From: a virus
Taxonomy: Duplodnaviria > Heunggongvirae > Uroviricota > Caudoviricetes
IMG/VR virus record: IMGVR_UViG_3300037852_000247
Coordinates: 1-64,000 of that record
Length of the DNA: 64,000 nucleotides
Direction: 5' to 3' (one strand)
The translations under genes were made by a program, and so were the position numbers. Positions within the stretch are counted from its first letter, which is position 1. Each line of letters starts with the position of its first letter. Of this stretch, positions 6,621 through 57,354 are shown piece after piece. The notes below the pieces were generated by a model, which saw only the letters and a program-made list of their open reading frames with translations, had not been told where the DNA came from and searched no databases.

Positions 6621-6873
6621 GCGCGCCCTGCCCGCAGGTATGACCCCGCGCCTTCTGTCGCGCGAGGCCGCAGCGACCTATTGCGGGATTTCGCCCAACC
6701 ATTTTGATGAACACCTCGCCGAGGCGGTCCCGCCGGTCTTCATTGGTCGCCGGAGGCTTTGGGACGTCAAGGCGCTAGACCGCTGGCTTGATGCGCAATC
6801 GGGCCTCGCCCACTCTGTCGATTCTAGGTCGATGGAGGAGAGGCTCAATGGAGATCAAGGTGCGCGGCGTTAA
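6613..6873 (+). CDS. AlpA/excisionase-like HTH protein
   Basis: REAAATYCGISPNHFDEHL...PVFIGRRRLWDVKALDRWLD, typical of AlpA/Xis-type DNA-binding proteins. Sits immediately upstream of int. Confidence 0.6.
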   Translation: MAERALPAGMTPRLLSREAAATYCGISPNHFDEHLAEAVPPVFIGRRRLWDVKALDRWLDAQSGLAHSVDSRSMEERLNGDQGARR

Positions 6874-8014
6874 AGTCTATCGCAGCCGCGGGAAGGTTTA
6901 TGCCTATCACCGCAAGACGGGTAAGCGCATTCGCGCGCCGTTCGGGACTGCGGTATTCCTGGCCGAGGTCGAGCGGCTCAATGGCGCCCAACCGGTCGCT
7001 CCCAGCCCCGGCTCATTGGGCGGGCTCATTGCTGCGTATCGGCGGTCGCCGGAGTTCCTTGAGCTGGCCCCGCGGACCCGGTCCGACTACCAGAAGGTGT
7101 TCGACTACCTGCGACCGCTCGACGGCGATGCGCTGTTCGAGATCACGTCGGCCTATGTGATCGACGTCCGCGACGCGGCGTTCCGGTCGCACAAGCGACG
7201 GTTCGCGAATTACGTGCTCGCGGTACTGCGGCTGCTCCTCAAATGGGGCGCAGTGCGCGATCTGGTCGAGACAAACCAAGCTGCCGCGGTGCCGAAGCTG
7301 CGGCGGCCGCGGAACATGGCCCCCGCTAACCGGCCGTGGACGGATGCCGAATATGAAGCCGTTATCTCAGCCGCTTCCGGTGGCATCAAAATCGCCATCG
7401 CTCTCGGTCGCTTCACGGGCATTCCGGAGGGCGACATGGTCCGGTTGCCGAGATCCGCCTACGACGGCAATTGGATAAGCTGGCGCCGCGGCAAGACCGG
7501 CAACCCGGTCGACCTGCCGGCGCATCCCGAACTCAAGGCGATCCTCGACGAACGAAAAATTTTAGAGATCCCTGACCCCGCCATGCCGGGAGCTAGCCTG
7601 ATTTTAGATCGAGGCGATGCGGAACCGGATGCACCCCGTAGCTCAACGGAAGAGCGCTCGTCGACCGAGACGAGAGATGGGGGTTCAAATCCCCCCGGGT
7701 TTGCGCCAATCGAGGCGATGACGATCGTCGCCGGTGTGAAGGGTCGGCCGTACACCGAGAGCGGCTTCCGCGCGGGTTTCTTCAAGCTGATCAAATCGCT
7801 GCGTGAGCAGGGTCTCGTGGGGCCGCGCCTGACATTCCAGGGACTCCGCACCACCGCCGCCACGGCGCTCGCCGAGGCCGGGTGCAGCACGCAGACGATC
7901 ATGTCCGTTACCGGGCACAGCACCGAGGCGATGGTGGCCCACTATACCAGGCAAGCCAACCGGAAAAACCAAGCCGTTGCTGCGGTCGAGAAACTGAGGC
8001 CGAGGAAGACATGA
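6848..8014 (+). CDS. int: Tyrosine integrase (phage integrase family) with in-frame insertion
   Basis: GGAGGAG RBS precedes the ATG at 6848. The N-terminal arm-type domain is MEIKVRGVKVYRSRGKVYAYHRKTGKRIRAPFG. Box II and the catalytic Tyr are FQGLRTTAATALAEAG...IMSVTGHSTEAMVAHYTR. About 50 extra residues (7565-7720) sit between the box I region and the downstream conserved block. Confidence 0.85.
   Translation: MEIKVRGVKVYRSRGKVYAYHRKTGKRIRAPFGTAVFLAEVERLNGAQPVAPSPGSLGGLIAAYRRSPEFLELAPRTRSDYQKVFDYLRPLDGDALFEITSAYVIDVRDAAFRSHKRRFANYVLAVLRLLLKWGAVRDLVETNQAAAVPKLRRPRNMAPANRPWTDAEYEAVISAASGGIKIAIALGRFTGIPEGDMVRLPRSAYDGNWISWRRGKTGNPVDLPAHPELKAILDERKILEIPDPAMPGASLILDRGDAEPDAPRSSTEERSSTETRDGGSNPPGFAPIEAMTIVAGVKGRPYTESGFRAGFFKLIKSLREQGLVGPRLTFQGLRTTAATALAEAGCSTQTIMSVTGHSTEAMVAHYTRQANRKNQAVAAVEKLRPRKT
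7620..7708 (+). other. tRNA-like element embedded in frame in int, flanked by 12-bp direct repeats
   Basis: GTAGCTCAACGGAAGAGCG is a D-arm consensus and GGGGGTTCAAATCCCCC is a T-arm. The anticodon-like stem is CTCGTC/GACGAG with a 6-nt loop. The element ends in GCGCCA. ATCGAGGCGATG occurs at 7608-7619 and again at 7709-7720. Confidence 0.45.
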
Positions 8015-9170: not shown

Positions 9171-9348
9171 CGCATGATGGCGCGCTATCCTAACCCATTG
9201 AAATCGCGTCCGTACGGACCGGCATTGCGCCGCAGAAAAACGGACCACCAGTCGGCTGCTCCACGTTGTAATTTCAATAGGCCTTATCCGCAAAAGCGTC
9301 TAACGCGCTCTATTGCGACCCGCGGAGTTCTGCCAAGGGGGCGCGGTG

Positions 9349-10239
9349 ATGTCTAGCGCAAAACCGCTCGCGATCGACCTCTATTGCGGCCTTGGTGGTT
9401 GGGCCGAAGGCCTGCTCGCAGAGGGCTTCGATGTCATCGGATTCGATATCGAGCGGCATCGGTACCCAGCGCGCGATCTGTCGGCTTCCGATGGAACGAA
9501 GATCAGGCAGAGTGGAGTAGACTTCAACCATCCGCGGGTCGGGAGCAGCGCGAACCGATCATTCAATTATGCGAACGAGCGTGCGGTCCGCGATGCGCCG
9601 CTGACCGGTGGATGGATCGAGTATCCCGGCCATCTCGTCATACAGGACGTGCGCACGCTGCGCGGCTCTCAGTTCAAGGACGCGGCGCTGATCGTCGCAT
9701 CGCCGCCATGCCAAGCGTACAGCTATCGGGCAATGCCGTGGAAGCGAGCAAAGGCGTTGCCGCCACCTGACAACACGCTTTTCGAGACATGCTTCCGCAT
9801 TCAGCGCGAGGCGTCGGGGGCATCCGGACATCACGTCCCCCTAATTGTCGAGAATGTTCGCGGCGCGCAGCCATTTGTCGGTCGCGCACGGTGGAATTTT
9901 GGATCGTTCTACCTCTGGGGAGACGTGCCAGCTTTGATGCCGATCACATTCAAAGGCCAGAAACTCCCTGGCTTCCGGTTCGACGGCAGCGGTCGATCGT
10001 TTCAATCCGAGTCTGTCACGAGAAAGAACAACGGCGTATGGACAAATCCCGATGAGGATGCTGGCATCAAGCATCAGGAATCTGGCCACGCATGGTATCG
10101 CACAGGGCACGGCCAGCTGCCGTCCTCATCCTCGCGGCGCAAAGCCGCAAGCGCCATGATCGCCAAGATACCGCAACCGCTCAGCCGGCATATTGCAGCG
10201 GTCTTTCGCACACCGCCAGCGGGGCGCGGCGATGCCTAG
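9349..10239 (+). CDS. DNA (cytosine-5)-methyltransferase
   Basis: Motif I LYCGLGGW, motif IV PPCQAYS, ENV motif. The start at 9349 lies inside a copy of the junction motif. The protein C-terminus ends PPAGRGDA like the downstream cassette proteins. Confidence 0.8.
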   Translation: MSSAKPLAIDLYCGLGGWAEGLLAEGFDVIGFDIERHRYPARDLSASDGTKIRQSGVDFNHPRVGSSANRSFNYANERAVRDAPLTGGWIEYPGHLVIQDVRTLRGSQFKDAALIVASPPCQAYSYRAMPWKRAKALPPPDNTLFETCFRIQREASGASGHHVPLIVENVRGAQPFVGRARWNFGSFYLWGDVPALMPITFKGQKLPGFRFDGSGRSFQSESVTRKNNGVWTNPDEDAGIKHQESGHAWYRTGHGQLPSSSSRRKAASAMIAKIPQPLSRHIAAVFRTPPAGRGDA

Positions 10240-10429
10240 AGATTTGACGGATTTCCACTTCCTGCTTACGGGCTGCAATGACGAGCAGGCCGACGGCGAA
10301 ATAGACCTGGAGGAGTTTCAATTGGTCTTTCTTCCCCACCTCAAGCAGATACGGATCAATCTGACAGGCGAGCAGGTTGCGCAACTTCAGAAATGGCCGT
10401 CAGCGATGAGCCGGCGCGGCGAAGCCTAG
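10229..10429 (+). CDS. Cassette protein with EF-hand-like loop
   Basis: MPRDLTDFHFLLTGCNDEQADGEIDLEEF..., where DEQADGEIDLEE fits D-x-x-x-D-G-x-I-x-x-x-E. Ends in a degenerate junction motif (RRGEA). Confidence 0.4.
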   Translation, partial: AMPRDLTDFHFLLTGCNDEQADGEIDLEEFQLVFLPHLKQIRINLTGEQVAQLQKWPSAMSRRGEA

Positions 10430-10450
10430 CGTTTTGCGAAGGATAGGCGG

Positions 10451-10672
10451 ATGAACACACTCTATTGCTCGTTCTGCGGGAAGGCCGAACACGAGGTGTT
10501 CTATATCGTAGAGGCACCGGTGCGACAGGGGATTTGCGACGAGTGCGTGGTGCTGGCCAGCGACATAATCCAAACTCAACGCGCCAAGGTTGCGCGCGGC
10601 GAGCCAGTTCGCCGTCATTACCGCACACTTGCGGAGTTTCGCGCCTCGCCAGCGGGGCGCGGCGATGCCTAG
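10451..10672 (+). CDS. Standalone ClpX-type C4 zinc-finger protein
   Basis: MNTLYCSFCGKAEHEVFYIVEAPVRQGICDECVVLASDIIQ matches the ClpX N-terminal zinc-binding domain (LYCSFCGK...ICDECV). Ends ...SPAGRGDA. Confidence 0.65.
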   Translation: MNTLYCSFCGKAEHEVFYIVEAPVRQGICDECVVLASDIIQTQRAKVARGEPVRRHYRTLAEFRASPAGRGDA

Positions 10673-10841
10673 CGAGCGCGATCACCTTCACTGCAGTGAG
10701 ATGTGCGAACACCCGCAACCATTCTGTGTCGGCGAACTCATTCTGTGCGGGCTTTGTTTTTACTTCCGAGATCGAATCACGCCGATGGTGGAGTGCTCTC
10801 GGGATTATTGCGGTGAGCCAGCGGGGCGCGGCGATGCCTAA
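10665..10841 (+). CDS. Cassette Cys-rich small protein
   Basis: MPSERDHLHCSEMCEHPQPFCVGELILCGLCFYF...CSRDYCGEPAGRGDA, 58 aa. Confidence 0.45.
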   Translation: MPSERDHLHCSEMCEHPQPFCVGELILCGLCFYFRDRITPMVECSRDYCGEPAGRGDA

Positions 10842-11007
10842 AGATCGCTGGGTGATCGAGTTAATTCTGGACGATCCAGAGGAGGCGCGTCTGGCGTATG
10901 ACGCGATCGAAAAGCTGCTTGTTGAGATGGGCGAGATCGGGACGCTTTGGTTCTATCGCCGGACTCGCAACCCGCTCCCACCGCTAGCGGAGCGCGGCGA
11001 TGCCTAA
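10838..11007 (+). CDS. Cassette small protein
   Basis: MPKDRWVIELILDDPEEARLAYDAIEKLL...PLAERGDA. Confidence 0.4.
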
Positions 11008-11266
11008 GCACAAAAGTTACGGCTGCTACGAAAAAACGGCGCGAGTGTTGGTCAAAGAATTTTTGACGGCTCGGTTTCCCGGAGACGCCTCTTGGCGTGA
11101 AATGATGGCCGAAATAAAGGAACGGAAATTGACGCAAATTTCGGTCGACGACGCTCTCCTGACATTATCGGCTAGTAAGGAGGCGGAAATTGTCGATAGC
11201 CAAGCAAAATTCAAACGTGATTGGCGCTGGCGCGCAATACCGCCAGCGGGGCGCGGCGATGCGTAG
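11000..11266 (+). CDS. Cassette small protein
   Basis: MPKHKSYGCYEKTARVLVKEFL...PPAGRGDA, 88 aa. Confidence 0.45.
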   Translation: MPKHKSYGCYEKTARVLVKEFLTARFPGDASWREMMAEIKERKLTQISVDDALLTLSASKEAEIVDSQAKFKRDWRWRAIPPAGRGDA

Positions 11267-11489
11267 CGTTTCACAGGCTACCGGCGTGCCGTGCATCTAT
11301 CCTGCACCTTCTGATCGAGGAAAGCCGTACATCGTGAGGGTTATGATCAACAAGAAACTCTACACGGTAGGGACCTTTGTCACAGTCGAGGACGCCGTTG
11401 TGGCTCTCGCGGAGTTCCGTCTCGCTAATCCTCGACCAGCGATCCGGCGCAGTCCCGTTACTGGAAGATATGAGCGAATCTATGACTGA
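11259..11489 (+). CDS. Cassette AP2-like DNA-binding protein
   Basis: GKPYIVRVMINKKLYTVGTFVTVEDAVVALAEFRLAN resembles an AP2/integrase-type DNA-binding domain. Confidence 0.45.
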   Translation: MRSVSQATGVPCIYPAPSDRGKPYIVRVMINKKLYTVGTFVTVEDAVVALAEFRLANPRPAIRRSPVTGRYERIYD

Positions 11490-11505
11490 CCAGAGGGGCG
11501 CGGCG

Positions 11506-11742
11506 ATGCCTAGCCCACCGGACGGGAAGGAGATCTGGGCACAACCTGAGCCATCAGACGCTATGGTCTGGGCAATTTGCCCCTACATCACTCGCCGCAA
11601 TCTCGAACTTTGCAACCGCTGCCCGAAGTGGGAATGGGACGCTCGTGGTGAATCGGACGTCCAACGCGGCTGCTACGGAATGGCCGCTGAGGCCTGTCGG
11701 ATCGTTTTTGCGATGCAGCGGCGAGAGGTGCACGGTGTGTGA
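11506..11742 (+). CDS. Cassette Cys-containing small protein
   Basis: MPSPPDGKEIWAQPEP...CPYITRRNLELCNRCPKWEW..., 78 aa. Confidence 0.4.
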   Translation: MPSPPDGKEIWAQPEPSDAMVWAICPYITRRNLELCNRCPKWEWDARGESDVQRGCYGMAAEACRIVFAMQRREVHGV

Positions 11743-11759
11743 ACAAGCGGGGCGCGGCG

Positions 11760-12011
11760 ATGCCTAATGCTTTGAAAGAAGCGGATACTCTACTGCCAGA
11801 CGATCTGGCGGACTGGGTCTCAAAACTATCCGAAGTATTGACGCCGCTTGATTGGGCAGAACAAGCCTTAGATTATGCCCAAGTAAAGCATAGCCGACGG
11901 CCCTTCTTACGCCCACACCTAGCGCGGGCTATTACTGAGGCACAAGAGGCCGCCGTGAAAAGGGCATCACGTCCTAAACCGGAACCGCCAGCGGAGCGCG
12001 GCGATGCCTAG
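11760..12011 (+). CDS. Cassette small protein
   Basis: MPNALKEADTLLPDDLADW...PPAERGDA. Confidence 0.45.
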   Translation: MPNALKEADTLLPDDLADWVSKLSEVLTPLDWAEQALDYAQVKHSRRPFLRPHLARAITEAQEAAVKRASRPKPEPPAERGDA

Positions 12012-12189
12012 CGATGCGCTGATCACTGCCGAGGCTACCGAACGCCTTGCGCGTCTGCGCGCCGGGATGGTGGACGAGATTTCGCGGCAACAGAAAATGC
12101 TGAACGCCCTTCGCGCAAGACTATCGGGCGTGGATGCCGTGATTTCGGTAGTGGAGTGTGTACCGCCAGCGGAGCGCGGCGATGCCTAG
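12004..12189 (+). CDS. Cassette small coiled-coil protein
   Basis: MPSDALITAEATERLARLRAG...PPAERGDA. Its 3' 70 bp (12105-12175) are duplicated at 12366-12435. Confidence 0.45.
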   Translation: MPSDALITAEATERLARLRAGMVDEISRQQKMLNALRARLSGVDAVISVVECVPPAERGDA

Positions 12190-12400
12190 CGCAAAACGGC
12201 GGCGACCGCCAATCGTCAAACCGGTGGCCGCTGCATCGAAATATCCCTGCACGCAATGCGGAGGGGATGCTCTTGTTGGCTTTGTCGCGAATAAGCCTGG
12301 AGATTGGTACGGCAAGATCAATGTCGGCGAAAGGCTTTGTACTGGTTGCTTCGTGAGGCTAGCGCCCTTCGCGCAAGACTATTGGGCGTGGATGCCGTGA
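12182..12400 (+). CDS. Cassette Cys-rich zinc-ribbon-like protein
   Basis: MPSAKRRRPPIVKP...YPCTQCGGD...CTGCFVRLAP. Followed by the duplicated 3' fragment of the previous cassette. Confidence 0.4.
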   Translation: MPSAKRRRPPIVKPVAAASKYPCTQCGGDALVGFVANKPGDWYGKINVGERLCTGCFVRLAPFAQDYWAWMP

Positions 12401-12439
12401 TTTCGGTAGTGGAGTGTGTACCGCCAGCGGGGCGCGGCG

Positions 12440-12628
12440 ATGCCTAGCGTAAAAACGCGCGAGCAGGCTCGCATTCGGATGGAGAGATTCTATGCAAAGC
12501 GAGCAATTCACCGTGGCGTGCGCTGCTACGTATGTATGAAGCCCACTCACGGCTATTTCCGCTGTCTGAGTTGCCGCCGAAAGCTCAACTCGCGGCGTAT
12601 GGATAAGAAGGGGCGCGGCGATGGATAG
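12440..12628 (+). CDS. Cassette Cys-rich small protein
   Basis: MPSVKTREQARIRMERFYAKR...CYVCMKPTHGYFRCLSCRRK...KKGRGDG. Confidence 0.4.
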   Translation: MPSVKTREQARIRMERFYAKRAIHRGVRCYVCMKPTHGYFRCLSCRRKLNSRRMDKKGRGDG

Positions 12629-12839
12629 CGATGAGATCAGCTTCGACCCGCCGTTGCCCCTGCCTCTCGACGAGACGGCCGGGCGGCTATTTGATCGGCT
12701 GTGTCGGGCTCACGCAGCCCTGCTTAAAGCCCAAGCTGCGCTCAACCCGTTGTCCGGGTTTTTGCGGAAACGGCCGCCGAAAATGGAGCGCTATCTCGAA
12801 AGCGTGAGGCAAGAAATTCGGGAGGCTATGCGTGACTGA
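12621..12839 (+). CDS. Cassette small protein
   Basis: MDSDEISFDPPLPLPLDETAGRLFDRLCRAHAALLK... Confidence 0.4.
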   Translation: MDSDEISFDPPLPLPLDETAGRLFDRLCRAHAALLKAQAALNPLSGFLRKRPPKMERYLESVRQEIREAMRD

Positions 12840-12877
12840 AACATTGCCTGACCATACGACAGCAGCGGGGCGCGGCG

Positions 12878-13069
12878 ATGGCTAGGTCAGGAATCCACCG
12901 TCATGTCTGGGACGAAGTGTCGTATGGCGCGCAGGGGTGGTTTTTTTGCCCCTACTGCAAGGCGGTGCGCGCGCCTTCCGGGAGGATATTTCATGAGAGC
13001 AAGACCATCCGTGAGATTGACGGCGTAACCATCAATGACAATCCGCTAGCGGGGCGCGGCGATGCCTAG
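12878..13069 (+). CDS. Cassette Cys-containing small protein
   Basis: MARSGIHRHVWDEVSYGAQGWFFCPYCKAVRAP...PLAGRGDA. Confidence 0.4.
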   Translation: MARSGIHRHVWDEVSYGAQGWFFCPYCKAVRAPSGRIFHESKTIREIDGVTINDNPLAGRGDA

Positions 13070-13102
13070 CGATTTAAGCCAATCACACTGAGGGGGAAAG
13101 AA

Positions 13103-13744
13103 ATGCCGAGAGGTGCTGAATTTTCGATCAAGGCCGACTACGCCCAGCTGGTCTCGCCATTCGCGTCAAACGACAAGACGCGGTGGAATCTGAACGGCTT
13201 CTACGTCCAACGGCACCCGTCGGGCGGTGCGGTGATCGTTGCCACCGACGGCCGATCTCTGGCCGTCTTCTACGACCAGTTCGGCGAGGTCAAGGCGCCC
13301 GCCATCGTCCGCCTTCACAAAACCACCCTGGCGGCGTGCGCTGAGGATTGCACGCTGGTGCTGACCGGCGATCGCGCCGGCGTCTACCAGATGTGGAACA
13401 AGGAGACCGGCGAGGGCATCCTCGTTGCGGGACAGGATCAAGCCGTTATCGAGGGCGACTTCCCGGATTGGCGCTTGCTGATCCCACCGGTTCCGGCCGA
13501 GACCGTACCAGCGACATTCGCGTTCACCGAACTGAAGAAGTTCGACAAGGTCAGGCAGTTCGGTTCCAAAATCGCGGCGCTACGTATCTTAGCTGAGTCA
13601 TCAAGTGGGCCCGCCATCGTTCTGACCAAGCGCGACGATTTCCTCGGCGTGATCATGCCAGTCCCCGGCATCGCCGACGAAAACCGGATGCCGCATTGGA
13701 TGCCGCGGCCGAACGTGGGGCCGTCGGCAGCGGCGGCGGAATGA
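13103..13744 (+). CDS. DNA polymerase III beta-clamp-like single-domain protein
   Basis: KTRWNLNGFYVQRHPSGGAVIVATDGRSLAV resembles the DnaN motifs TRYYLNG...ATDGHRLA. GAGGGGGAAAG RBS upstream. Confidence 0.45.
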   Translation: MPRGAEFSIKADYAQLVSPFASNDKTRWNLNGFYVQRHPSGGAVIVATDGRSLAVFYDQFGEVKAPAIVRLHKTTLAACAEDCTLVLTGDRAGVYQMWNKETGEGILVAGQDQAVIEGDFPDWRLLIPPVPAETVPATFAFTELKKFDKVRQFGSKIAALRILAESSSGPAIVLTKRDDFLGVIMPVPGIADENRMPHWMPRPNVGPSAAAAE

Positions 13745-14151
13745 CATTCTACCCCATCACGCCAATGGCCGCACCTAGACTCACGAATCGGGATCGCTGG
13801 AAGAAGCGTCCCGTAGTGCTGGAATATTTCGCGTTCCGTGACGAGGTCGCAGCTAGGCGCGTCTCGCTGCCGATACCATCGAAAATCATCTTCTGGATGC
13901 CAATACCACCGTCCTGGTCCAAGAAGAAACAGCGAGACGCTGATTCCGCTCCTCATGAGCAGACGCCGGATATTGACAACCTCCTAAAGGCTCTCATGGA
14001 GGCAGTCTTCCGCGACAAGGACGCGATCGTCTGGTCTGTGTGGCCCGAGAAGCGATGGAGTAGCAAGCCCGGGATCGAGGTTCTCCCGATCATGACCTCT
14101 TCGCTTACGACCGCCACGCTCGCCGACGTGTGGCCGGGGGTACCGCTATGA
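13741..14151 (+). CDS. rusA: RusA-family Holliday junction resolvase
   Basis: APRLTNRDRWKKRP...PPSWSKKK...PHEQTPDIDNLLKALMEAVF...DAIVW matches RusA family signatures. Confidence 0.7.
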   Translation: MTFYPITPMAAPRLTNRDRWKKRPVVLEYFAFRDEVAARRVSLPIPSKIIFWMPIPPSWSKKKQRDADSAPHEQTPDIDNLLKALMEAVFRDKDAIVWSVWPEKRWSSKPGIEVLPIMTSSLTTATLADVWPGVPL

Positions 14152-14462
14152 GCGTCGTCGACTGGTCTGGGCGTCGCGAGCCGTGGCGCCGCGTCGGCAG
14201 CGAATTTTGCAGGATTCTTCCAGCGCTTGTTCGTGGTGATCCAGTCCCGCAGCCGCATGAAGCCGCTCGGCCTCGAACCCACGCACAGGTCACATGGATC
14301 ATCGAGCGACGAATGGAAATGGGTCTCTCGCAGCGCGAATTAGCGCGACGAGTTGGCTGTTGGCAGGCGGAAATAAGCCGCATCGAGAGAGGTGAGCGCC
14401 AGCCATCGCAAGCCATGCATGAGCGGCTCGCTGCGGTATTGCTGCCGGAGCCGCCGCCGTGA
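14148..14462 (+). CDS. XRE-family HTH regulator
   Basis: GLSQRELARRVGCWQAEISRIERGERQPS. Confidence 0.6.
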   Translation: MSVVDWSGRREPWRRVGSEFCRILPALVRGDPVPQPHEAARPRTHAQVTWIIERRMEMGLSQRELARRVGCWQAEISRIERGERQPSQAMHERLAAVLLPEPPP

Positions 14463-24778: not shown

Positions 24779-26173
24779 ATGGCGCGAGGCGGAGCGCGGG
24801 TTGGAGCGGGTCGGAAGGCCCAAAAAAGGCCCAACACTTCCCCCGTGTCGCGCGCCCGCGCGCCCGCGCGCGAGTCGGACGGAAATCAAAGGCCGTGGCC
24901 GGCCGACAAGGTCGAGCGATGGTTGATCGATCGGTTGATCCCATACGCTCGAAATGCTCGCACTCATAGCGACGAGCAGGTAGCGCAGATCGCGACCTCG
25001 ATCCGCGAATTTGGCTTCACCAACCCGGTGCTCGTTGACGAAGCGGGTACGCTGATCGCCGGGCATGGCCGTGTGCTCGGGGCGCACCAGCTTGGCATTA
25101 CCGATGTGCCGACGATGGTGGCGCGCGGGTGGACGCCGGCGCAAATCCAGGCTTACCGGCTCGCCGACAACAAGCTGGCGCTCAACGCCGGGTGGGACCC
25201 GGAATTGCTTCGGCTTGAGCTCGGAGAGCTGAAGCTCGGCGGCTTTGATTTATCGCTGACCGGGTTTGGCGAGCTCGAACTCAAAGACATCATGGCCGAG
25301 CGGACCGAGGGGCTTACCGACCCCGACGACACGCCCGCGGTGCCCGAGCATCCGGTCTCGGTGGCGGGCGATTTGTGGATCCTCGGGCGGCATCGTCTCC
25401 TCTGCGGCGACAGCACGGTCGCGACGGACGTTGAGCGCGTGCTCGGCGGCGTCGAGCCGCACCTGATGGTCACCGACCCGCCTTATGGGCTCAATTACGA
25501 CGCTAATTGGCGGAACGAGGTTGAGAAGCTCAACTTTCGGACGCGCGGAACTTCCGCCACCGGGCCAGTGCTTAACGACGACAGGTCTGACTGGACCGAA
25601 GCGTGGGCTCTATTCCCTGGAGAAGTTACGTATGTTTGGTGCGCCTCGCTCCAGTGTCCCGCTGTTGCCGCGCATCTTAGACAATGTGGATTTGAACCTC
25701 GCAATTTGATCATATGGGCAAAAAGCAGCCTCGTGGTCAGCCGCGGCCACTATCATCCGCAGCACGAAACCTGCTGGTATTCGGTTCGCAAAGGCAAAAC
25801 AGGACATTGGACGGGCGATCGAAAACAATCGACGCTTTGGCAAATCGTCAAGTCAAATAAGCTGGAGACCGGGCACTCGACGCAAAAGCCGGTCGAGTGC
25901 ATGCGCCGGCCGATCGAGAATAACTCCTCATCCGGCCAGGCGGTCTATGAGCCTTTCTGTGGTAGTGGGACAACGATAATCGCGGCCGCGATGACCGGCC
26001 GCGCTTGCCACGCTATCGAACTCAGCCCGCAATATGTCGACGTCGGCGTCAAGCGCTGGCAGGACTTCACGGGCGAGGCCGCGGTGCTAGAGGGCGACGG
26101 CCGCACCTTCGACCAGATCGCCGCTGAGCGGCAGCCTCAAGCGGCTACGTCCGAGGCTGCAGATGCCGCGTGA
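24779..26173 (+). CDS. ParB-like nuclease domain fused to DNA methyltransferase (N6/N4 type)
   Basis: ParB-N domain RLIPYARNARTHSDEQVAQIATSIREFGFTNPVLVD...GHGRV. Methyltransferase motif IV DPPY and motif I FCGSGTT. The first ~22 nt (ATGGCGCGAGGCGGAGCGCG) are identical to the start of terS at 27608. Confidence 0.8.
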   Translation: MARGGARVGAGRKAQKRPNTSPVSRARAPARESDGNQRPWPADKVERWLIDRLIPYARNARTHSDEQVAQIATSIREFGFTNPVLVDEAGTLIAGHGRVLGAHQLGITDVPTMVARGWTPAQIQAYRLADNKLALNAGWDPELLRLELGELKLGGFDLSLTGFGELELKDIMAERTEGLTDPDDTPAVPEHPVSVAGDLWILGRHRLLCGDSTVATDVERVLGGVEPHLMVTDPPYGLNYDANWRNEVEKLNFRTRGTSATGPVLNDDRSDWTEAWALFPGEVTYVWCASLQCPAVAAHLRQCGFEPRNLIIWAKSSLVVSRGHYHPQHETCWYSVRKGKTGHWTGDRKQSTLWQIVKSNKLETGHSTQKPVECMRRPIENNSSSGQAVYEPFCGSGTTIIAAAMTGRACHAIELSPQYVDVGVKRWQDFTGEAAVLEGDGRTFDQIAAERQPQAATSEAADAA

Positions 26174-27383: not shown

Positions 27384-27607
27384 TCACTTGCCTCCGGGCA
27401 CCACTCCTCGTGTGGCCCGGTGTCATCATCGGACATTCCCCCACATTCTGGGCATGCTTCTGCCGTGATTAGCTTCAACGCGAGCTTTGACAGTCTTCTG
27501 ATGTCAAACCCCAACACGTCGCCATCCTGACAAAGTGGCGCAGCACACATGCAGATTTTTCTTTGCGGTCGATTAGCGACTTTTTGAAACGACGCAATGG
27601 AATTTGA

Positions 27608-28171
27608 ATGGCGCGAGGCGGAGCGCGATCCGGTGCTGGGCGCCCAAAGCAATCGGCTACCCCGAAAGCTGGCGCGCCGAGAGGCGGAGCGCGGGAAGGC
27701 GCGGGCCGGCCAATGAGCAAGAAATTCGCGCCCACAGCCGACCAACGCGGCAATGTCGAGGCAATGAGCGGCTTCGGTATTTCCCAGGAAGAAATCTGCC
27801 GAGTGATCATCAATCCCGAAACCGGCAAGCCGATCGACAGGAAGACCCTGGAGCTGCATTTCTCCGACGAGATCGAAACCGGCTACATCAAAGCCAATGC
27901 CACAGTCGGCCGCATAGCCTACGCCACGATCACCGCCGCCCCCGGCGGCATCCCAGACAACCACGGCCGCGTCGAGCTCACCAAATTTTGGCTGGCCAGG
28001 CGAATGGGTTGGAAAGAGACCAACGTGCACGAGCACAAAAGCGAGATTGACAGTGCTTCCTCAGCTCGAGAAGTTGTCACGGGCCTCATCGCTCGCCTCT
28101 CTTCTGCCCGAAGAGCAGGCAGCGGTAATAGCTCAGATGACGGATCGGGAACTGGAGGAACTCCGGTATGA
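27608..28171 (+). CDS. terS: Terminase small subunit (P27-like)
   Basis: The MARGGARSGAGRPK N-terminal motif is typical of P27-family small terminases. Sits immediately upstream of terL. Confidence 0.65.
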   Translation: MARGGARSGAGRPKQSATPKAGAPRGGAREGAGRPMSKKFAPTADQRGNVEAMSGFGISQEEICRVIINPETGKPIDRKTLELHFSDEIETGYIKANATVGRIAYATITAAPGGIPDNHGRVELTKFWLARRMGWKETNVHEHKSEIDSASSAREVVTGLIARLSSARRAGSGNSSDDGSGTGGTPV

Positions 28172-29567
28172 ATGGCCCTACTGGGCGCGAGATGAGCAGC
28201 TCCAGCCTGCGGGCGACTGGCGAGTCTGGCTCTATCTTGCAGGACGAGGTTCGGGCAAGACTCGGAGCGGCGCCGAATGGGTCCGCGCCCAAGTCGCCGC
28301 CGGCCGTCGTCGCATCGCCCTGGTCGCCCCGACGGCGGCCGATGCGCGCGACGTTATCGTCGAAGGTGAAAGCGGCATCCTTGCAGTTTCTCCGGCCGTA
28401 GACCGACCGCACTACGAGCCGTCCAAGCGGCGGCTGACCTGGCCCAACGGCGCGATCGCCACGACGTTCTCGGCCGACGAACCGGAGCGGCTCCGCGGCC
28501 CGCAGCACGACGCCGCCTGGTGCGACGAGTTGGGGGCCTGGCGGTACCCCGAGGCCTGGGACATGCTGATGTTCGGGTTGCGCCTCGGCGACGACCCGCG
28601 GGTCATGGTCACCACCACACCAAGGCCGACCAAGCTCATCAAAGACCTCGTCGCCGATCCCACCGTCGCCATCAGCCGCGGCAGCACATACGAGAACCGC
28701 GCCAATCTAGCCGGCGCGTTCCTCCAGCAGATCGTCAAGAAATACGAGGGCACCCGCCTCGGCCGCCAGGAGCTCAACGCCGAGCTGCTCGACGACGTGC
28801 CGGGCGCGCTGTGGAACCGCGCCCTCCTCGAGGCGGCGCGGCCGCCCATCGGATTCGTGCTTCCCGATCTGGTGCGCGTCGTTGTCGCCATCGATCCGGC
28901 GGTGAGCTCGGGCGAGGATTCCGACGAGACCGGCATCATCGTCGCCGGCAAGGATAAGAACAGCCGCGGCTATGTATTGGCCGACCTTTCGGGGCGTTAC
29001 ACGCCGATCGAATGGGCCCGCATCGCCGTCGCCGCCTATAAGAACCACGGTGCCGACAGGATCGTCGCCGAGGTCAACAACGGCGGCGAGATGGTCGAGG
29101 CCACGCTCCGCGTCGTCGACGACAACGTCGCTTATACCGCAGTGCACGCGACCCGCGGCAAGGTGGTGCGCGCCGAGCCGGTCTCGGCGCTCTACGAACA
29201 GGGCCGCATCCGGCATATGGGCGCGTTCACCGTGCTCGAAGATCAGATGTGCGAGTTCACGCCGGACCTCGACCGCTCGAAGCCAAAGCGCGATCCGATG
29301 GACCCATCGAGCCTCGGCATGGGCGGCGCTCGCTCCTCGCCGGACCGCGCCGATGCGCTGGTGTGGGCCTTCACCGAGATCCTCGTCGAGGAGATCGCCT
29401 CCTGGGGCATCTACGAAGTCACCCGGCGCAAGGCCGAGGCTCTGGTCAAAGAGCGGCTGGCGGCGGTGGAGGCAGGTCGGCCCAAGTCGGAGCCCGCGCC
29501 CGGATCCCAGGAATACCAAGCACTCCATCCGGAGTGGAAGCCGCAGGACGGGGGGGAGTCCTATTGA
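28047..29567 (+). CDS. terL: Terminase large subunit
   Basis: Walker A YLAGRGSGKTRSGAEW, ATPase core motif WCDELGAW, and a nuclease-domain acidic region. The true start is probably the internal Met at 28137. Confidence 0.85.
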   Translation: MTVLPQLEKLSRASSLASLLPEEQAAVIAQMTDRELEELRYEWPYWARDEQLQPAGDWRVWLYLAGRGSGKTRSGAEWVRAQVAAGRRRIALVAPTAADARDVIVEGESGILAVSPAVDRPHYEPSKRRLTWPNGAIATTFSADEPERLRGPQHDAAWCDELGAWRYPEAWDMLMFGLRLGDDPRVMVTTTPRPTKLIKDLVADPTVAISRGSTYENRANLAGAFLQQIVKKYEGTRLGRQELNAELLDDVPGALWNRALLEAARPPIGFVLPDLVRVVVAIDPAVSSGEDSDETGIIVAGKDKNSRGYVLADLSGRYTPIEWARIAVAAYKNHGADRIVAEVNNGGEMVEATLRVVDDNVAYTAVHATRGKVVRAEPVSALYEQGRIRHMGAFTVLEDQMCEFTPDLDRSKPKRDPMDPSSLGMGGARSSPDRADALVWAFTEILVEEIASWGIYEVTRRKAEALVKERLAAVEAGRPKSEPAPGSQEYQALHPEWKPQDGGESY

Positions 29568-29786: not shown

Positions 29787-29993
29787 TCACTGGTTGGAAG
29801 TCCGAGCCGGCTGGATCTCAAGAATACCAGGCGCTGCATCCGGAATGGAAGCCACAGGATGGCGGGGAGTCCTATTGACGACTGTTGCCTTCGGGCACCA
29901 CTCCTCATGTGGCCCGGTGTCATCGTCGGGCAGTCCGCCGCATTCCGGGCAAATTAATTCTTCAGGCTCATAATCCTGACAGCCGCAAATCAT
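29787..29993 (-). CDS. Small Cys-rich protein
   Basis: MICGCQDYEPEELICPECGGLPDDDTGPHEEWCPKAT. A C-terminal fragment of a paralog is encoded at 27385-27470. Confidence 0.4.
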   Translation of the reverse strand: MICGCQDYEPEELICPECGGLPDDDTGPHEEWCPKATVVNRTPRHPVASIPDAAPGILEIQPARTSNQ

Positions 29994-31266: not shown

Positions 31267-33042
31267 ATGCCCGCACCCGGCACCGGCGGCGTCCAGACAT
31301 CGCTGGTCGGCACCGTGCAAGGCATGATGGCGCGCGCGCGAGCCGCGTTCCGCGGCAAGCCGACGCCGGGCGCAACGATCCAAAGTCCAGGCGTCAACCC
31401 GCCGGACCTGACGCAGTTTAGCGATACCTTTGAGCCGTCGGGTGGTCTGTTCGCTCCCGGCTATCCGCTGCCACCGGTCGAGCCTGAACGGCTGCGCGCG
31501 CTCGACTATCCCGTCGGGTACAACTACATCTACACGCCGCGCTCATACGAACCCATTGGGTTCGCCGAATTGCGCGCGCTGGCGCAAAACCACGACATCA
31601 CCCGGCTCTGCATTGAGACACGCAAGGATCAGATCGAGGCCCTCCAGTGGTCGATCAAACCGCGGGATGAGCGCAACCCGAAAGCTGGCGCCGAGAAGCG
31701 GTCCGACGCGCTGACCGAGTTTTGGATGTGCCCCGACGGCAACAACGACTTTGCGACTTGGCTCCGGATTTTACTCGAAGACGTGCTCGTACTTGATGCG
31801 GCAACACTGGAGGTCCGCAAAAATCGCGGAGGCGACATCATTGCGCTGGACATTATTGACGGCAGCACGATCAAGGTGCTGATCGACACCACTGGGCGCC
31901 GGCCCGCTCCTCCCGCACCTGCCTTTGAGCAGATCATCCATGGCCGGCCTTGGGTGCTCACCGAGGATGGCCGCGTCAGCACCAATGCCAAAGCAGACCG
32001 TTCGATCTTCGCCGACCAGCTTATTTACGTGCCGCGCAATCCGCGGCCACACAAGTTGTACGGCTATTCTCCTGTCGAGCAGATCATGCTCACGATCAAT
32101 ATCGGTATTCGCAGGCAGATTATGCAGTTGCAACATTTCACGGAGGGCAATCTACCGCCGGGAATGGCTACGGGCGCAAAAGATTGGAGCCCGGATCAAA
32201 CTGCGAAATACCAGGAGTGGTTTGATTCATATTACGCCGGCAATACCGGCAACCGGACGAAAATGATCTGGGGGCCGGCCGAGGCGAAATACATTCCATT
32301 CAAGGAAGCGCCGTACAAAGACGATTTCGACGAGTGGCTGACGCGCGTCGTGTGTTACGCCTTTTCATTGCCGCCATCCTGGGCTGTAAAACAGATGAAC
32401 CGCGCAACCGCGGGTACAGCGCAAGAAGTTGCGATCGAAGAAGGACTTGCCCCAATAATGGGGTACGTCAAGCGGATGATCGACAACGTCATCCAGCGCC
32501 GCATGGGCAACCCCGACCTCGAGTTCTCCTGGAAAGACGAGCGACCGGTCGACCCGGCAGACCAGGCGAAAATCTTCGACATTTACATCAAGAACGGGAC
32601 TTACGTGCAGGACGAGGTGCGCGACAAGCTGGGCGATGACCCGCTCCCCGATGGCGTCGGTGCCCAGCCGATGATTATCACCGCGAGCGGTCCGGTCCTG
32701 CTGAAAAATCTCGAGGCGCTGGGCGAGTTGAGTTTGAACCCACCCCAGCCGACGCTAACGCCGAGCTCGGGCCCGGCGGCCGGCAAAGGTGGGCCCGAGG
32801 GCAAGGCGGCGCCTCGAAAGGGCGCTGCCAAACCCTCCGGAAAAACCCCGGCCAAGAGCAAAGCGAATGGAAAGACCGCCGCCAGCCTCGGCCAGCCTAT
32901 CGGACGTGATCAAGGTTACGCGCCAGCCGACCCTCCACGCGGCGCAGAAGCGGTTCGCCTCGCGATTGCACGCCTTGCTACGCGACCTGGCGCACCAGAC
33001 GGCGCGGGCACTCGGCCCGCAGATCAGGCTCCACGGCCGTAG
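31267..33042 (+). CDS. Phage portal protein
   Basis: 591 aa, directly downstream of the terminase. Conserved portal-like core (YNYIYTPRSYEPIGFAELRALAQNHDITRLCIETRKDQI...). Low-complexity K/A/P-rich C-terminus. Confidence 0.7.
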   Translation: MPAPGTGGVQTSLVGTVQGMMARARAAFRGKPTPGATIQSPGVNPPDLTQFSDTFEPSGGLFAPGYPLPPVEPERLRALDYPVGYNYIYTPRSYEPIGFAELRALAQNHDITRLCIETRKDQIEALQWSIKPRDERNPKAGAEKRSDALTEFWMCPDGNNDFATWLRILLEDVLVLDAATLEVRKNRGGDIIALDIIDGSTIKVLIDTTGRRPAPPAPAFEQIIHGRPWVLTEDGRVSTNAKADRSIFADQLIYVPRNPRPHKLYGYSPVEQIMLTINIGIRRQIMQLQHFTEGNLPPGMATGAKDWSPDQTAKYQEWFDSYYAGNTGNRTKMIWGPAEAKYIPFKEAPYKDDFDEWLTRVVCYAFSLPPSWAVKQMNRATAGTAQEVAIEEGLAPIMGYVKRMIDNVIQRRMGNPDLEFSWKDERPVDPADQAKIFDIYIKNGTYVQDEVRDKLGDDPLPDGVGAQPMIITASGPVLLKNLEALGELSLNPPQPTLTPSSGPAAGKGGPEGKAAPRKGAAKPSGKTPAKSKANGKTAASLGQPIGRDQGYAPADPPRGAEAVRLAIARLATRPGAPDGAGTRPADQAPRP

Positions 33043-49123: not shown

Positions 49124-52100
49124 ATGGTCAAATCAGGCTTTGCGGCCCTTTGCCTCGTCCTCCTCTTCCTCATTGCGGGGATAGACGGGAAAGCGCTCGC
49201 CCAAGGCGGGTTCACGCCCGGCCCGGGATTGACTTTGACATCGCCGATCCTGACAACGCCGACCATAAACGCCGGCGTCATGAATGGGACGTTCACCGGC
49301 GCGCCTTATTTTTCAGGCGGTCCGACGATCATCGGCGGGACTCTCATCAGCCCCACGATATCCGGCGCGACCATCAGCGGCACATTCTCCATCGCCACGT
49401 TAGGCGTTGCCGGCAACGCCTCGTTCGGCGCAGGAATAAAGTCAACCGCGCTCGCCAACGCTCCGATGCTGGGGACCGACGTGTCGGGAAATTTCCGGGC
49501 AATAACGCTCGGAACGGGCCTTTCGTTCGGCGGCGACGGCGTCACGCTCAATGTTTCATCCCCGCCCCCTTCGGTTGTCTGGCCTGCGCCGAACAGCCTC
49601 ATCATCTCGAACGGCACGAACTCACCCTCTGGGCTGACGCCCGTCAATAATTCTCTGCTCTACGCGAGCGGCAATGGCTGGCAGGGTCTCGCAGCCGCAG
49701 CGAGCTCCGTGCCCTGTTGGAATGCCTCCAGCATGCTGACGGCATGCTCACCGACCACGATGCAGACGACCCTGGGATACCTGACGGGCAACCAAACGAT
49801 CACCCTCGGCGGCGATTTCTCGGGCTCAGGCGCAACCTCGATTACAGGGACGGTCCTCAAGCTCAACGGCGTATTTGCCCCGGCAACGCCTGCGACGAAC
49901 ACGATTCCTTATGTCTCTTCGCCGAACCAATTCACCTACGGCAACGCCGCAACTATCCTGGGAGTCCTGGGCGTCCCGTTCTCGGTTCCCAATGGCGGCT
50001 CCGGCCTGGCGACTCTAACCGCGGGCGCGATCTACAAAGGCGCAGGTACGGCGAACATCGTCGCCTCTGGCCTATCGGATAGTGGTTCGGTAATTAGCAC
50101 ATCCGAGCCGTTCGATCTCACCAATCAGAGCCAAGTGATCGAGATCGCCAATGCGAGTTCGGTTGGCACCACGAACGGACTGCTGGCGAAGCTGACGGGT
50201 GCACCGTCTACGGCGCTCACGCTCCTGACGAGCGATACCGATGGAGCCCTCGGGGTTGTTCTCAGCGGGGGCGGGACGATCGGCAACGCACTGATCGTCA
50301 TCGGCGGTCAGGCGAATTGCTCGTTCGACGGGTCGACCACGGCTGATAATTGGGTCATACCAAGTTCCACCGCCGCCGGTAAATGTCACGATACCGGATC
50401 GGCCACCAGACCGGGCGGCTCGCAGGTGATCGGGCGCGTACTCACGACGAACGCGGGAGGCCCCGGCTCCTATGCGATGATCGTCAACCCCAGTTTTACG
50501 AATACGGCAGGCAGTCCTCCGACTTGGCCCGCGACCGGCAGCATTGTCGTTTCGAATACCACCAACACGCCAGCAGGCCTCGCGCCGGTCAACAACGATC
50601 TGGTCTATGGGACGGGCGGGGCGTGGGCGGCTCTCGCATCGGCAGCCAACTCGGTACTCTGCACGAACGGATCAAGTGTTCCGTCGCTATGCTCGGCGGC
50701 AACCACGCTGTCGCTCTTGGGCGCGCCGTGGTCGGTTTCCAACGGCGGATGGGGCCTCACCACTTTAATTTCCGGGGCGATCTATAGAGGCAACGGAACC
50801 AGCCCCCCTGCGGTCTCGGGCCTATCGGACAATGGCACTCTCGTCAGCACCAGCGAACCCTTCGACCTGACCACCAAGAGCGCCGCCTTTGAGGTCGCGA
50901 ATGCATCAAGCGGCGGCACGACCGTTGGGTTGATTGCAAAGATCTCCGCCGCCCCGTCCACAGCCCTGACGGTGCTCACCAGCGATACCGATGGCGCAGC
51001 TGGCATCGTCATCGGCGGCGGCGGTACTACTGGCAATGCGCAAATCGCTTTCCGTGGCCGGGCATTCTGCACGTTCGATGGCGCAACGACGGCCAGCCAT
51101 TACGTCACGATCAGCGGCAGCGTGGCCGGAAATTGCCATGACGGCGGAGCCGCTAGGCCGGCAGGCGCGCAATCGATCGGTCAGGTTCTAACGACTAACG
51201 CCTCGGGCGGTTCGTATGAGGTTGCCATCAGCCTCGGTTTCACGAATACGGCAGGCAGTCCTCCGACCTGGCCGGCGACCGGCGACATCGTTGTTTCGAA
51301 CAGCACCAACACCCCGGCAGGACTGGCGCCGGTGGCCAGCTCGGTGCCCTGCTGGAATGCCTCCAGCGTACTGTCGGCGTGTACATCGGCGGCGGCGCAG
51401 ACGATCCTGGGATACCTGACGGGCAACCAGACGATCACCCTAGGCGGCGATGCGGCAGGCTCCGGGACCACCTCGATCACGGTGTCGAATCTCAAGCTGA
51501 ATGGTGTTGCTTACCCAGCCTCGCCGGCGACCAATACGGTCCCGGTCATTACCACCTCAAACCAAGTCACGTATGAGACTGGCTCCGGGCTTGCGGCATT
51601 GACCGGCTTCGGCACGATGCTGACGCAGAACGCCAGCGCCGTCGCCATCACCGGCGGATCGATTATCGGGACGACGATCAACGGGCCCAGCAACACAATA
51701 ACCAACATCGGCAATGCGTCGTTGACGAATTCGAGCATGACCCTAGCCGGCCATAGCGTTTCCTTGGGCGGCACGCAGGCGTTTGCGATCGGCGATCTCT
51801 CGAACATCGGGGCAACAACGATTGTCGGCAATAACACCGGCATCGCCGGCGTCCCGCTTGCGCTGTCGACCGCGCAAGTGTCGGCGTTGCTCGGCCTCGG
51901 GACCATGGCCACGCAGAATGCCAGCGCCGTCGCTATCACCGGCGGGTCTATCATCGGCACAACGATCAATGGCCCGAGCAACACGATAACGAACATCGCC
52001 AACGCGTCGCTGACGAACTCCAGCATGACCCTAGCCGGGCATAGCGTCTCTTTGGGGGGCACGCAGGCGTTCGCGATTGGCGACCTGTCTACCATCGGGG

Positions 52101-56023: not shown

Positions 56024-57354
56024 TTTCGCTCATGACGCGATGCCTGCTTGTCCTCGGCCTGATTTTCGCCGTCTCGCCCGCGTTCGCTGATCAGGGCGCC
56101 CAGCGCACCACCTACGGCATGTCGCTCTCGTTGCAAGGGGAACTCCTCGACCTCGCTGCGCCGATTTGCTCGCCGGCCGCCGGTTCCTACAGCGTGGTGT
56201 ATCGCAACAGCATCGCGACCGGGTGCACCGGCAGATCCAGCGACGACTTCGCGATACTCCTATTCACTGGCAGCTCTCCCGCGACCTATACGATGCCGCA
56301 GAGCAAGGTGACGACTTTCACCGGGTCGATTTCCGGGACCACGCTGACCACTCCAGCGAACGCTGTCATAATCGGCTCCGTCATTACAGGCGTGGGGGTC
56401 CTCGACAATACTTACGTCACCGCCACCACAAACAGTACGACGTGGACCGTAAACAATTCGCAGACAGTGGCAAGCGAGACCCTCACCCAGTCGATCTTTC
56501 CGCCTGGACACGGCACCTGTATTAAGAGCGACACCTCTGCCACTGCGTTACTGACAGTTGCGGCTACCACATCGACGATCAGTGGTGCGGCAGGCGTTAG
56601 CGGCGCAACGGTTCCGATCAATCCCGGTGGGGAAGTGTGCCTGCAAGCCACCGCGAGCAATAATTACGAAGCGATGGGATATCTCCCAGGCGTCGGGCCG
56701 TCGGGCATCCAGGCTGTAGCTGGTGCATCTAATACCTGTGCTTCTACTGGCGGGGCTGGGGCTGCTTGCACAACCACCAACACTAACATGTCGGGGGTTG
56801 ATTTAATCGTTGGGTGCATCGGTTATTACAACGGCGCGTCAGGGACAAGTAACCCTTCAGATAGCCAAGGCAATACATACACACAGGTTTACTCTACGAA
56901 TCAAGCCGCCTTGGTTGGTACGCTATTCTTTAAGCAAGCCCCATCCGTTAGCGCCTCCATGACCTTTACCGCCAGCGCTACGGGTGGCGCTACCTATCCC
57001 GGCGCAGCCTTCCAGGGATTTTCCGGCTCTGTGGCAAGCCCGCTCGATCAATCCACAAACCCTGCCGCAACGGCGGTCACAGTAACAACGGTTTCGCCAG
57101 GATCTAAAACCCCGAGCCAAGCGAACGAACTCTTGGTGTCCTGTCTTGCGCGTGCTGCCGATCCCAGCAGCACCAGCGCCACCGCTATAGGATCACCATT
57201 TACGCTTGGGCCTAATATAGAAGTCAATGGCAACATCTCAGAGGGAGCCGCGCTGGGGTATCAGATCCAGGCTCCCGGGCCTACGGCGCAAAACCCGGCG
57301 TGGACCTGGACAGGAACTGCCGACGCAGTTGCTGGTCAGGCCACATTCAAATAA
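56020..57354 (+). CDS. Secreted Thr/Ser-rich protein (mosaic family member A)
   Basis: Signal peptide MISLMTRCLLVLGLIFAVSPAFA. The first ~690 nt are ~95% identical to 60368-61050. Confidence 0.5.
   Translation: MISLMTRCLLVLGLIFAVSPAFADQGAQRTTYGMSLSLQGELLDLAAPICSPAAGSYSVVYRNSIATGCTGRSSDDFAILLFTGSSPATYTMPQSKVTTFTGSISGTTLTTPANAVIIGSVITGVGVLDNTYVTATTNSTTWTVNNSQTVASETLTQSIFPPGHGTCIKSDTSATALLTVAATTSTISGAAGVSGATVPINPGGEVCLQATASNNYEAMGYLPGVGPSGIQAVAGASNTCASTGGAGAACTTTNTNMSGVDLIVGCIGYYNGASGTSNPSDSQGNTYTQVYSTNQAALVGTLFFKQAPSVSASMTFTASATGGATYPGAAFQGFSGSVASPLDQSTNPAATAVTVTTVSPGSKTPSQANELLVSCLARAADPSSTSATAIGSPFTLGPNIEVNGNISEGAALGYQIQAPGPTAQNPAWTWTGTADAVAGQATFK

Follow-up and report, generated by a model that had tools for sequence, protein, structure and literature searches.

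The window analyzed here is a stretch of 64,000 nucleotides (nt) from a virus of the Caudoviricetes (IMG/VR record IMGVR_UViG_3300037852_000247, positions 1 to 64,000), and the gene under study lies on its + strand at 10451..10672, where a complete open reading frame (ORF) encodes a stand-alone zinc-binding domain (ZBD) of the ClpX type, 73 amino acids (aa) in length (MNTLYCSFCGKAEHEVFYIVEAPVRQGICDECVVLASDIIQTQRAKVARGEPVRRHYRTLAEFRASPAGRGDA). The gene opens with an ATG and closes with a TAG at 10670-10672, and a Shine-Dalgarno-like AAGGA can be read from the sequence at 10439..10443, 7 nt before the start codon. Three parts can be told apart in the product. The zinc-binding domain proper, as delimited by the Pfam envelope, the AlphaFold2 secondary structure and Foldseek, spans residues 5-41 (10463..10573) and contains the putative cysteine ligands C6, C9, C29 and C32 (codons 10466-8, 10475-7, 10535-7 and 10544-6) in a hairpin followed by a helix. 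Residues 42-66 (TQRAKVARGEPVRRHYRTLAEFRAS; 10574..10648) form a basic tail that is specific to the family, as defined by a 12-sequence alignment and the AlphaFold2 model. The final 23 nt of the gene (10650..10672) are a copy, CAGCGGGGCGCGGCGATGCCTAG, of a junction repeat that recurs along this part of the window; this copy encodes (P)AGRGDA and the stop codon, and thus supplies the last seven residues, PAGRGDA, and also contains the ATG, at 10665, of the next gene (10665-10841). Upstream, a degenerate copy of the same repeat (GGCGCGGCGAAGCCTAG; 10413..10429, + strand) closes a 65-aa gene (10232-10429). Because this copy reads AAG in place of ATG, the ZBD gene relies on a separate start 22 nt downstream, and with its own ribosome-binding site it is an exception in an array in which start codons are otherwise borne by the repeats.

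Judged from profile matches and a predicted model, the 73-aa product is a C4 treble-clef ZBD of the ClpX type. Residues 5-41 match Pfam PF06689 (zf-C4_ClpX) over profile positions 2-38 of 39 with E=3.9e-12 and 46.3 bits, the gathering score of this family being 27 bits, and a phmmer search against all PDB chains returned ClpX entries only, with the E. coli ZBD 1OVX on top (E=8e-10) and 2DS5-8 at about 3e-9. The AlphaFold2 model, computed from 12 homologues, reached a mean predicted local distance difference test (pLDDT) score of 81.9, and placed strands at residues 19-22 and 26-29 (the hairpin), a long helix at 30-48, and a short helix at 60-65; the basic tail is predicted to prolong the long helix and to continue through a loop into the short one, with pLDDT about 73-75. 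When this model was compared with the PDB using Foldseek, the best matches were the ClpX ZBD crystals 2DS5/6/7/8, with a root-mean-square deviation (rmsd) of 1.6-1.9 A, 52-56% identity and target-normalised TM of 0.74-0.79, while all other matches had E>0.4. The cysteine spacing (CxxC, 18-19 residues, CxxC) is satisfied by the four ligands named above, which are invariant in 12/12 family members. The sequence-only reading of this DNA had described a 73-aa product at 10451-10672 that matches the C4 N-domain of ClpX and lacks any AAA+ module; the ORF list (ATG start, 73 codons plus TAG, + strand), the profile search, and the superposition of the model on the E. coli crystals agree with that description.

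The lack of an ATPase part is borne out by several searches. The NCBIfam ClpX equivalog models TIGR00382 and NF003745 stayed at 33 and 27 bits, with cut-offs of 359 and 371, and aligned just to the first ~50 residues of the protein. Tblastn of full-length ClpX against the whole window aligned only ClpX residues 17-71, at the ZBD ORF alone, and the CxFC...CDEC motif does not occur a second time in any frame of the window. No Walker A/B motifs, pore loops or IGF loop for ClpP docking were found in the ORF, which ends after 73 aa. Since the phage itself encodes neither ClpX nor ClpP, any link to ClpX must concern the host enzyme. Compared with the E. coli ClpX ZBD (residues 1-60; 1OVX, 2DS5-2DS8), with which it has the CxxC...CxxC site and the predicted treble-clef in common at 52-56% identity over ~40 residues, the window protein is not joined to an AAA+ ring, has the hairpin RKLIAG replaced by FYIVEG and F/Y34 by G, and carries one extra loop residue, the basic tail, and the repeat-encoded C-terminus.

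A word-indexed search recovered 11 relatives of 61-78 aa and 54-97% identity, each with PF06689 and no other domain, and the family is located in the early or accessory regions of phages. Alignment of the 12 sequences yielded 23 invariant columns, which include YCSFCGKAE, the second CxxC within ICDEC, L35 and D38. In the segment that follows the domain, R44, A48 and R49 are invariant, Q43 nearly so, and G50 and E51 are present in at least 90% of the sequences. These 12 homologues, with their constant size and 23 invariant positions, show at the level of the predicted proteins that the family is under purifying selection. The PAGRGDA C-terminus, on the other hand, is common only to the window protein and its 97%-identical relative (P0001), the other ten members ending otherwise. 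We also considered that tail residues 44-66 might derive from the linker and first AAA+ helix of ClpX, as MAFFT had set RTLAEFR over the ClpX (S/V)LD(D/Q)YV segment and tblastn alignments to Legionella and Ralstonia clpX reached residue 65-66; this candidate was rejected as unsupported when, with a hidden Markov model (HMM) of the tail alone, the real ClpX segments behind the ZBD obtained scores no better than those of 1,600 shuffles.

ClpX-type fingers that stand alone are by no means confined to this family. Four PHROGs families (12435, 6797, 20296 and 5259) consist of ZBD-only genes, and tblastn located ZBD-only ORFs in Caulobacter phage Cr30 (where the match covers the annotated coding sequence AGS81055.1 plus unannotated sequence upstream), in the P2-like Escherichia phage P88 (AIZ95127.1, 110 aa, with a C-terminal ZBD, in the variable region between a replication gene and the portal gene), and in PP9W2, a lambdoid phage of Pseudomonas (ULG00183.1, 65 aa, in the nin region and annotated as 'Clp protease'). 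Matching structures of 57-65 aa are present in BFVD. From a scan of IMG/VR seeded with a sequence pattern, 106 loci were obtained and 80 of them kept; among these, full-length ClpX accounted for 13, and there were 58 distinct shorter ZBD sequences, two of which are full-length ClpX genes truncated at the end of a contig. The ORFs that are truly short measure 53-330 aa by a longest-ORF estimate, with the finger at either end, and some viral short ZBDs are 78-88% identical to genuine ClpX ZBDs. Taken at the sequence level, these surveys show that ZBD-only genes have been acquired recurrently by phages. The other phage ZBD-only ORFs are likewise small, have one ClpX-type finger, lie among early, nin or accessory genes and have no known function; most of them keep an HEV(R/K)KLIAGP...F hairpin and are without the QRxRVARGEP...LAEFR tail of the window family. 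Their identity to the window protein is 41-46% for the PP9W2, Cr30 and P88 ORFs, and 34-59% across the IMG/VR matches.

Comparing alignment columns among genuine full-length ClpX, the other short viral ZBD ORFs, and the window family helped separate what is general from what is peculiar to the latter. In E. coli mature numbering, Y13, C14, S15, F16, C17, G18, K19, E23 and V24 are kept in all three groups, as are P31, I35, C36-C39, V40, L42, D45, I46 and I47, and the equivalents in the window protein include Y5 (Y13), F8 (F16), L35 (L42), and I39/I40 (I46/I47). The hydrophobic pocket of the F16/I46 type is therefore retained, F8 being invariant and position 39 being I in the window protein and V, I or L across the family. 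Changes restricted to the window family include C43 to A or V, and R48 and E50 to Q, in addition to the hairpin substitutions discussed below.

Our tentative interpretation, which we would place somewhat below an even chance, is that the protein is a mimic or decoy, that is, a free-standing copy of the docking domain of ClpX that competes with the host N-domains for adaptors and substrates; titration of ClpXP substrates or adaptors by such a decoy, as first suggested for this gene, is plausible from its sequence. In E. coli, lambda O, SspB, RssB and trigger factor make use of a hydrophobic side pocket formed by F16 and I46, and degradation of lambda O needs the ClpX ZBD (PMC7804408). The ClpX N-domain dimerises alone; MuA, FtsZ and adaptors depend on it, whereas ssrA does not (PMC5415555). 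The docking of SspB, lambda O and MuA by this domain, which the sequence-only reading had brought forward, agrees with both papers, which also add RssB and FtsZ (PMC5415555 and PMC7804408). In the window protein, the pocket and helix hydrophobics (Y5, F8, L35, I39 and I40) are kept while there is no ATPase and no ClpP-docking part, as would be expected of a mimic. We envision that the phage ZBD would fold around one zinc ion and dimerise, like the isolated E. coli ZBD, and would present a docking surface for adaptors and for substrates that depend on the N-domain, in competition with the host ClpX hexamer and its three ZBD dimers. In this way, selected phage or host proteins would be spared from ClpXP, while degradation of substrates recognised by the pore (ssrA-like) would carry on, and the FY/G hairpin surface together with the conserved basic tail might narrow or change the partner that is captured. 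We infer here the binding of a partner and the direction in which ClpXP is affected. Earlier work by Wojtyra et al. in 2003 reportedly found that the isolated ZBD, supplied in trans, inhibits degradation of lambda O and MuA by ClpXP. Small proteins that act on ATP-dependent proteases are familiar from other systems: lambda CIII inhibits FtsH, T4 PinA and T7 Gp4.5 inhibit Lon, and IraD, IraM and IraP are anti-adaptors for RssB-ClpXP. By analogy, the logic proposed here would be the same, a small early protein sparing selected targets from such a protease, although there is no sequence or fold kinship, and those inhibitors compete as substrates or bind the protease or its adaptor, whereas the window protein would be a copy of the docking domain.

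Several of our results weigh against this interpretation. In the window family alone, R25 is replaced by F (100%), K26 by Y (92%), A29 by E, and F/Y34 by G (75%), which leaves a hairpin face unlike that of ClpX, so that the known ClpX partners may not bind it. Identity to real ClpX ZBDs is 50-62% for the window family against a median of 69% for viral short ZBDs, which places the family at the diverged end of these sequences, and the conserved basic tail is peculiar to it. Because the hairpin is altered and the tail added, the family is not a plain copy of host specificity, and this keeps alive the alternatives in which the finger is independent of ClpX or docks onto it. A stoichiometric decoy would also require high expression. 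Furthermore, an exhaustive profile search returned 14,646 cluster representatives, and the top 150 are mostly of non-ClpX architectures, with 2-5 tandem fingers or fusions to TPR, Hsp70 plus Sel1, sigma54-type AAA+, S26 signal peptidase and glyoxalase-like domains; the ClpX-type finger is thus a general module of non-ClpX proteins, and homology alone does not tie the protein to ClpXP. We found no published characterisation of these architectures, and in the full-text literature no study, interaction or degradation data on any stand-alone ZBD, nor anything relevant on phage ClpX inhibitors or decoys. The surroundings give no pointer to a pathway either, as no conserved neighbours were found across seven family loci, and the host itself is hinted at weakly: the relatives of the window's integrase, just 25-30% identical, are all in Alphaproteobacteria, while those of the terminase and portal are scattered over host groups, so that an alphaproteobacterial host is suggested by the integrase alone.

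The alternative that survives best, although we regard it as rather unlikely, is that of a small zinc finger independent of ClpX, a generic binder of proteins or nucleic acids such as a regulator of phage early functions, whose likeness to ClpX would reflect nothing but common ancestry of a widely reused domain. It is favored by the architectures just described (with 1-5 ZBD copies in the top 150 cluster representatives), by the distinct hairpin surface and the basic tail with its invariant R44 and R49, and by the neighbors of the gene in the array, which are likewise small Cys-rich proteins or an AP2-like DNA-binding protein. It is harder to reconcile with a ZBD core 50-57% identical to genuine proteobacterial ClpX ZBDs in which pocket and helix residues are kept, and with the lack of any score from treble-clef DNA-binding families, GATA-type folds being returned by Foldseek only at E>0.4 with rmsd up to 12 A. 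In addition, the 78-88% identity to ClpX of many viral short ZBDs is more easily explained by mimicry.

Less probable still, in our opinion, is a docking or hijacking factor that would form a mixed dimer with the host ClpX N-domain, and either disable the adaptor site or deliver a new target by means of the tail. The conserved tail has no counterpart in ClpX, and it contains an [AG][RK]VAR stretch loosely similar to LRVVK, which we take to be the docking motif of SspB; the AlphaFold2 model, however, sets RVAR inside helix 30-48, while docking peptides bind as a strand. The helix hydrophobics with which the dimer is built are conserved (L35, I39 and I40, as well as Y5) and the ZBD dimerises autonomously (PMC5415555), but ClpX ZBD dimers are described as constitutive, and a free domain may exchange with them only slowly. 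Moreover, no conserved partner gene is found nearby.

We give little credence to a role in superinfection exclusion or defence, in which the protein, expressed from the prophage, would sense or block incoming phages through its ClpX-like finger. The 110-aa ZBD protein of P88 does lie in the variable region between replication and portal genes, which we take to be a known hotspot for prophage defence genes, and the integrase-proximal accessory array of the window also contains a DNA methyltransferase. On the other hand, a search of the PADLOC-DB v2 defence models with the ZBD protein gave 0 families at E<=1, there is no conserved partner effector gene, and the gene has no promoter or terminator of its own that would distinguish it from the phage operon. 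Finally, a functionless, decaying fragment of a captured clpX 5' end, which could be imagined because only the first ClpX domain is covered and alignments by MAFFT or tblastn can be drawn out into the ClpX linker, can practically be set aside, as it is already largely refuted by 12 homologues of 61-78 aa that, at an overall identity of 54-72%, keep frame, four cysteines and 23 invariant residues in different phage contexts, by a tail no more similar to the ClpX linker than shuffled sequences, and by the gene having its own ribosome-binding site.

Returning to the mimic interpretation, it can be extended from this family to phages at large: phages would repeatedly capture the ClpX docking domain and express it alone, as a mimic that sequesters adaptors and N-domain-dependent substrates or caps the N-domains, and the window family would be a version specialised for one partner by means of its altered hairpin and added basic tail. 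So broad a proposal is, at present, doubtful.

The array in which the gene is found is at least as unusual as the ZBD gene itself. Fifteen junction repeats on the + strand, between 9340 and 13069, bound a C5 DNA methyltransferase gene (9349-10239, which begins at the first repeat) and 13 small genes of 57-88 aa, and the ZBD gene is the third gene of the series. The repeat is ~27 nt long (consensus ccgCCAGCGGGGCGCGGCGATGCCTAGcg), and its 15 copies, all in the same orientation, compare with 0 expected by chance. Each is built of a Shine-Dalgarno-like GGGG, a 7-nt spacer, the ATG of the next gene, and an overlapping TAG or TAA of the previous one (GATGCCTAG); since the start and the stop lie within the repeat, most array genes begin with MP(S/K/R/N) and many end with P(A/P)(G/E)RGDA. 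Thirteen of the 15 copies provide a gene of 57-296 aa with its start codon, the two exceptions being the copy at 10413, with its ATG to AAG change, and the last one, at 13053, whose ATG opens a frame of just 9 codons. Folding of five stretches gave no RNA structure beyond that of shuffled sequences (z +0.6 to +1.2 in four and -0.4 in the fifth), no Rfam match was found for the repeats, and promoters and terminators between 6 and 15 kb occurred at chance level only. We read the repeats as candidate standardised junctions for translation initiation and coupling within one operon. The earlier placement of the gene inside a cassette array was correct in that repeat copies flank it, the degenerate one ending 22 nt upstream and the other overlapping its 3' end. 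Integron cassettes were nevertheless rejected as an explanation, given that the junctions are 27-nt direct repeats without a hairpin beyond shuffles, as opposed to attC sites, and the sole integrase, located 1.3 kb upstream, is a phage-type tyrosine integrase with Pfam Phage_integrase over its C-terminus only.

The junction repeat was not found in IMG/VR, and the scan of genome contigs gave just single chance matches in nine unrelated genomes. Three metagenome contigs do carry it, in 2-4 copies each: in L097 (1-1241) the repeats separate genes unrelated to those of the window, L098 (1-1246) has one cassette in common with it (11499-11735, 85%), and L107 has the C5 methyltransferase in common (85%). 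This pattern suggests that related phages may exchange cassettes at the junction repeats. The closest analogue that we could identify are the start-associated sequences (SAS) of cluster K mycobacteriophages, 13 base pair (bp) repeats at the ribosome-binding position before ATG starts (Pope et al. 2011, PMC3203893). Both are short, asymmetric, found in one orientation and only with non-structural genes, and lie before unrelated genes just ahead of the ATG, sometimes with an upstream stop codon (PMC3203893). The window repeat differs in being ~27 nt rather than 13 bp, in forming a contiguous run of 15, in belonging to another host group, and in including the start codon and the overlapping stop, so that it adds MP(S/K/R) to N-termini and PAGRGDA to C-termini; the likeness would be a functional one only, as there is no sequence relation between the two.

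Within the array, a 97-nt duplication (12105-12201 / 12363-12459, 95% identity) comprises the 3' end of one cassette and the junction repeat, and leaves an out-of-frame remnant behind gene 12182-12400; it looks like a recombination scar. Several products encoded among 10665-10841, 12182-12400, 12440-12628 and 12878-13069 are small and Cys-rich, with paired CxxC and no Pfam or PHROG match. For gene 11259-11489, the match is limited to an internal stretch (profile positions 213-257) of PHROG 99, a family of HNH endonucleases, and we interpret this segment as AP2-like DNA-binding. Among the small genes of the array, the zinc-finger gene alone carries a Pfam domain.

No junction repeats surround the other family members examined (L001, L002, L086 and L113-L115), which indicates that the ZBD gene is independent of the array, and the upstream 65-aa gene is common only to the 97%-identical relative. 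Elsewhere, the relatives are always in strings of small co-oriented genes, and in two long contigs, as in the window, a same-strand integrase precedes the gene by 1.6-2.4 kb. By this comparison, the ZBD gene is an autonomous accessory gene that the window's lineage would have recruited into its array, and the best explanation for its expression is translation from a polycistronic accessory or early operon behind the integrase. A search of the stretch 9300-14200 showed no DNA similarity to known phages, and the genome-contig scan contained no relative of the ZBD protein.

The window as a whole is the genome of a temperate phage. Its annotated genes, all on the + strand, include the tyrosine integrase (6788-8014), the large terminase (28047-29567), the portal (31267-33042) and an N6/N4 methyltransferase fused to a ParB-N domain (24779-26173), along with RusA, a helix-turn-helix regulator and a DUF1376 replication-type protein. 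The two DNA methyltransferases, C5 and N6/N4, are likely anti-restriction functions. Other features of the window were also recorded. ARAGORN called a 'tRNA-???' with a four-base anticodon at 7632-7704 (+) within the integrase ORF, probably a false positive. A repeat (85%) of the 3'-terminal 71 nt of the large terminase gene is found 311 nt further downstream (29497-29567 / 29808-29878), and it is directly followed by a further copy (88%) of the 3' end of a minus-strand ORF upstream of the terminase (27388-27454 / 29885-29951); these repeats are possibly the remnant of a module replacement or insertion. A 2,299-aa ORF (49124-56023) has several internal repeat families with a period of 288-750 nt, and paralogous 300-nt segments occur in 56020-61531 (56026/60362, 89%; 59866/61038, 83%; 58439/59739, 92%), so that 49124-61531 is probably a repetitive tail-fibre or host-recognition region.

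In several model phages, replication initiators, repressors and transposases are under the control of ClpXP, and the same holds for host cell-cycle and stress regulators; ZBD-only ClpX fingers, although frequent in viral contigs, are yet unstudied. The protease also controls some toxin-antitoxin defence, as the defence activity of CmdTAC is lost in a clpX deletion strain (bioRxiv 10.1101/2024.02.24.581848); CmdTAC, however, relies on a C-terminal Ala-Ala degron, and a ZBD decoy is therefore not expected to block it. If the protein described here acts independently of ClpX, the finding would be that of an ordinary small zinc-finger ORF. If, instead, it does act as a mimic, it would represent the first described viral strategy to redirect the substrate choice of ClpXP by means of a copy of the protease's own recognition module, and would provide a genetically encoded tool to separate adaptor-dependent from pore-dependent degradation by ClpXP. 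Such a phage editor of recognition by the ClpX N-domain would indeed constitute a new class of host-takeover or anti-defence factor.

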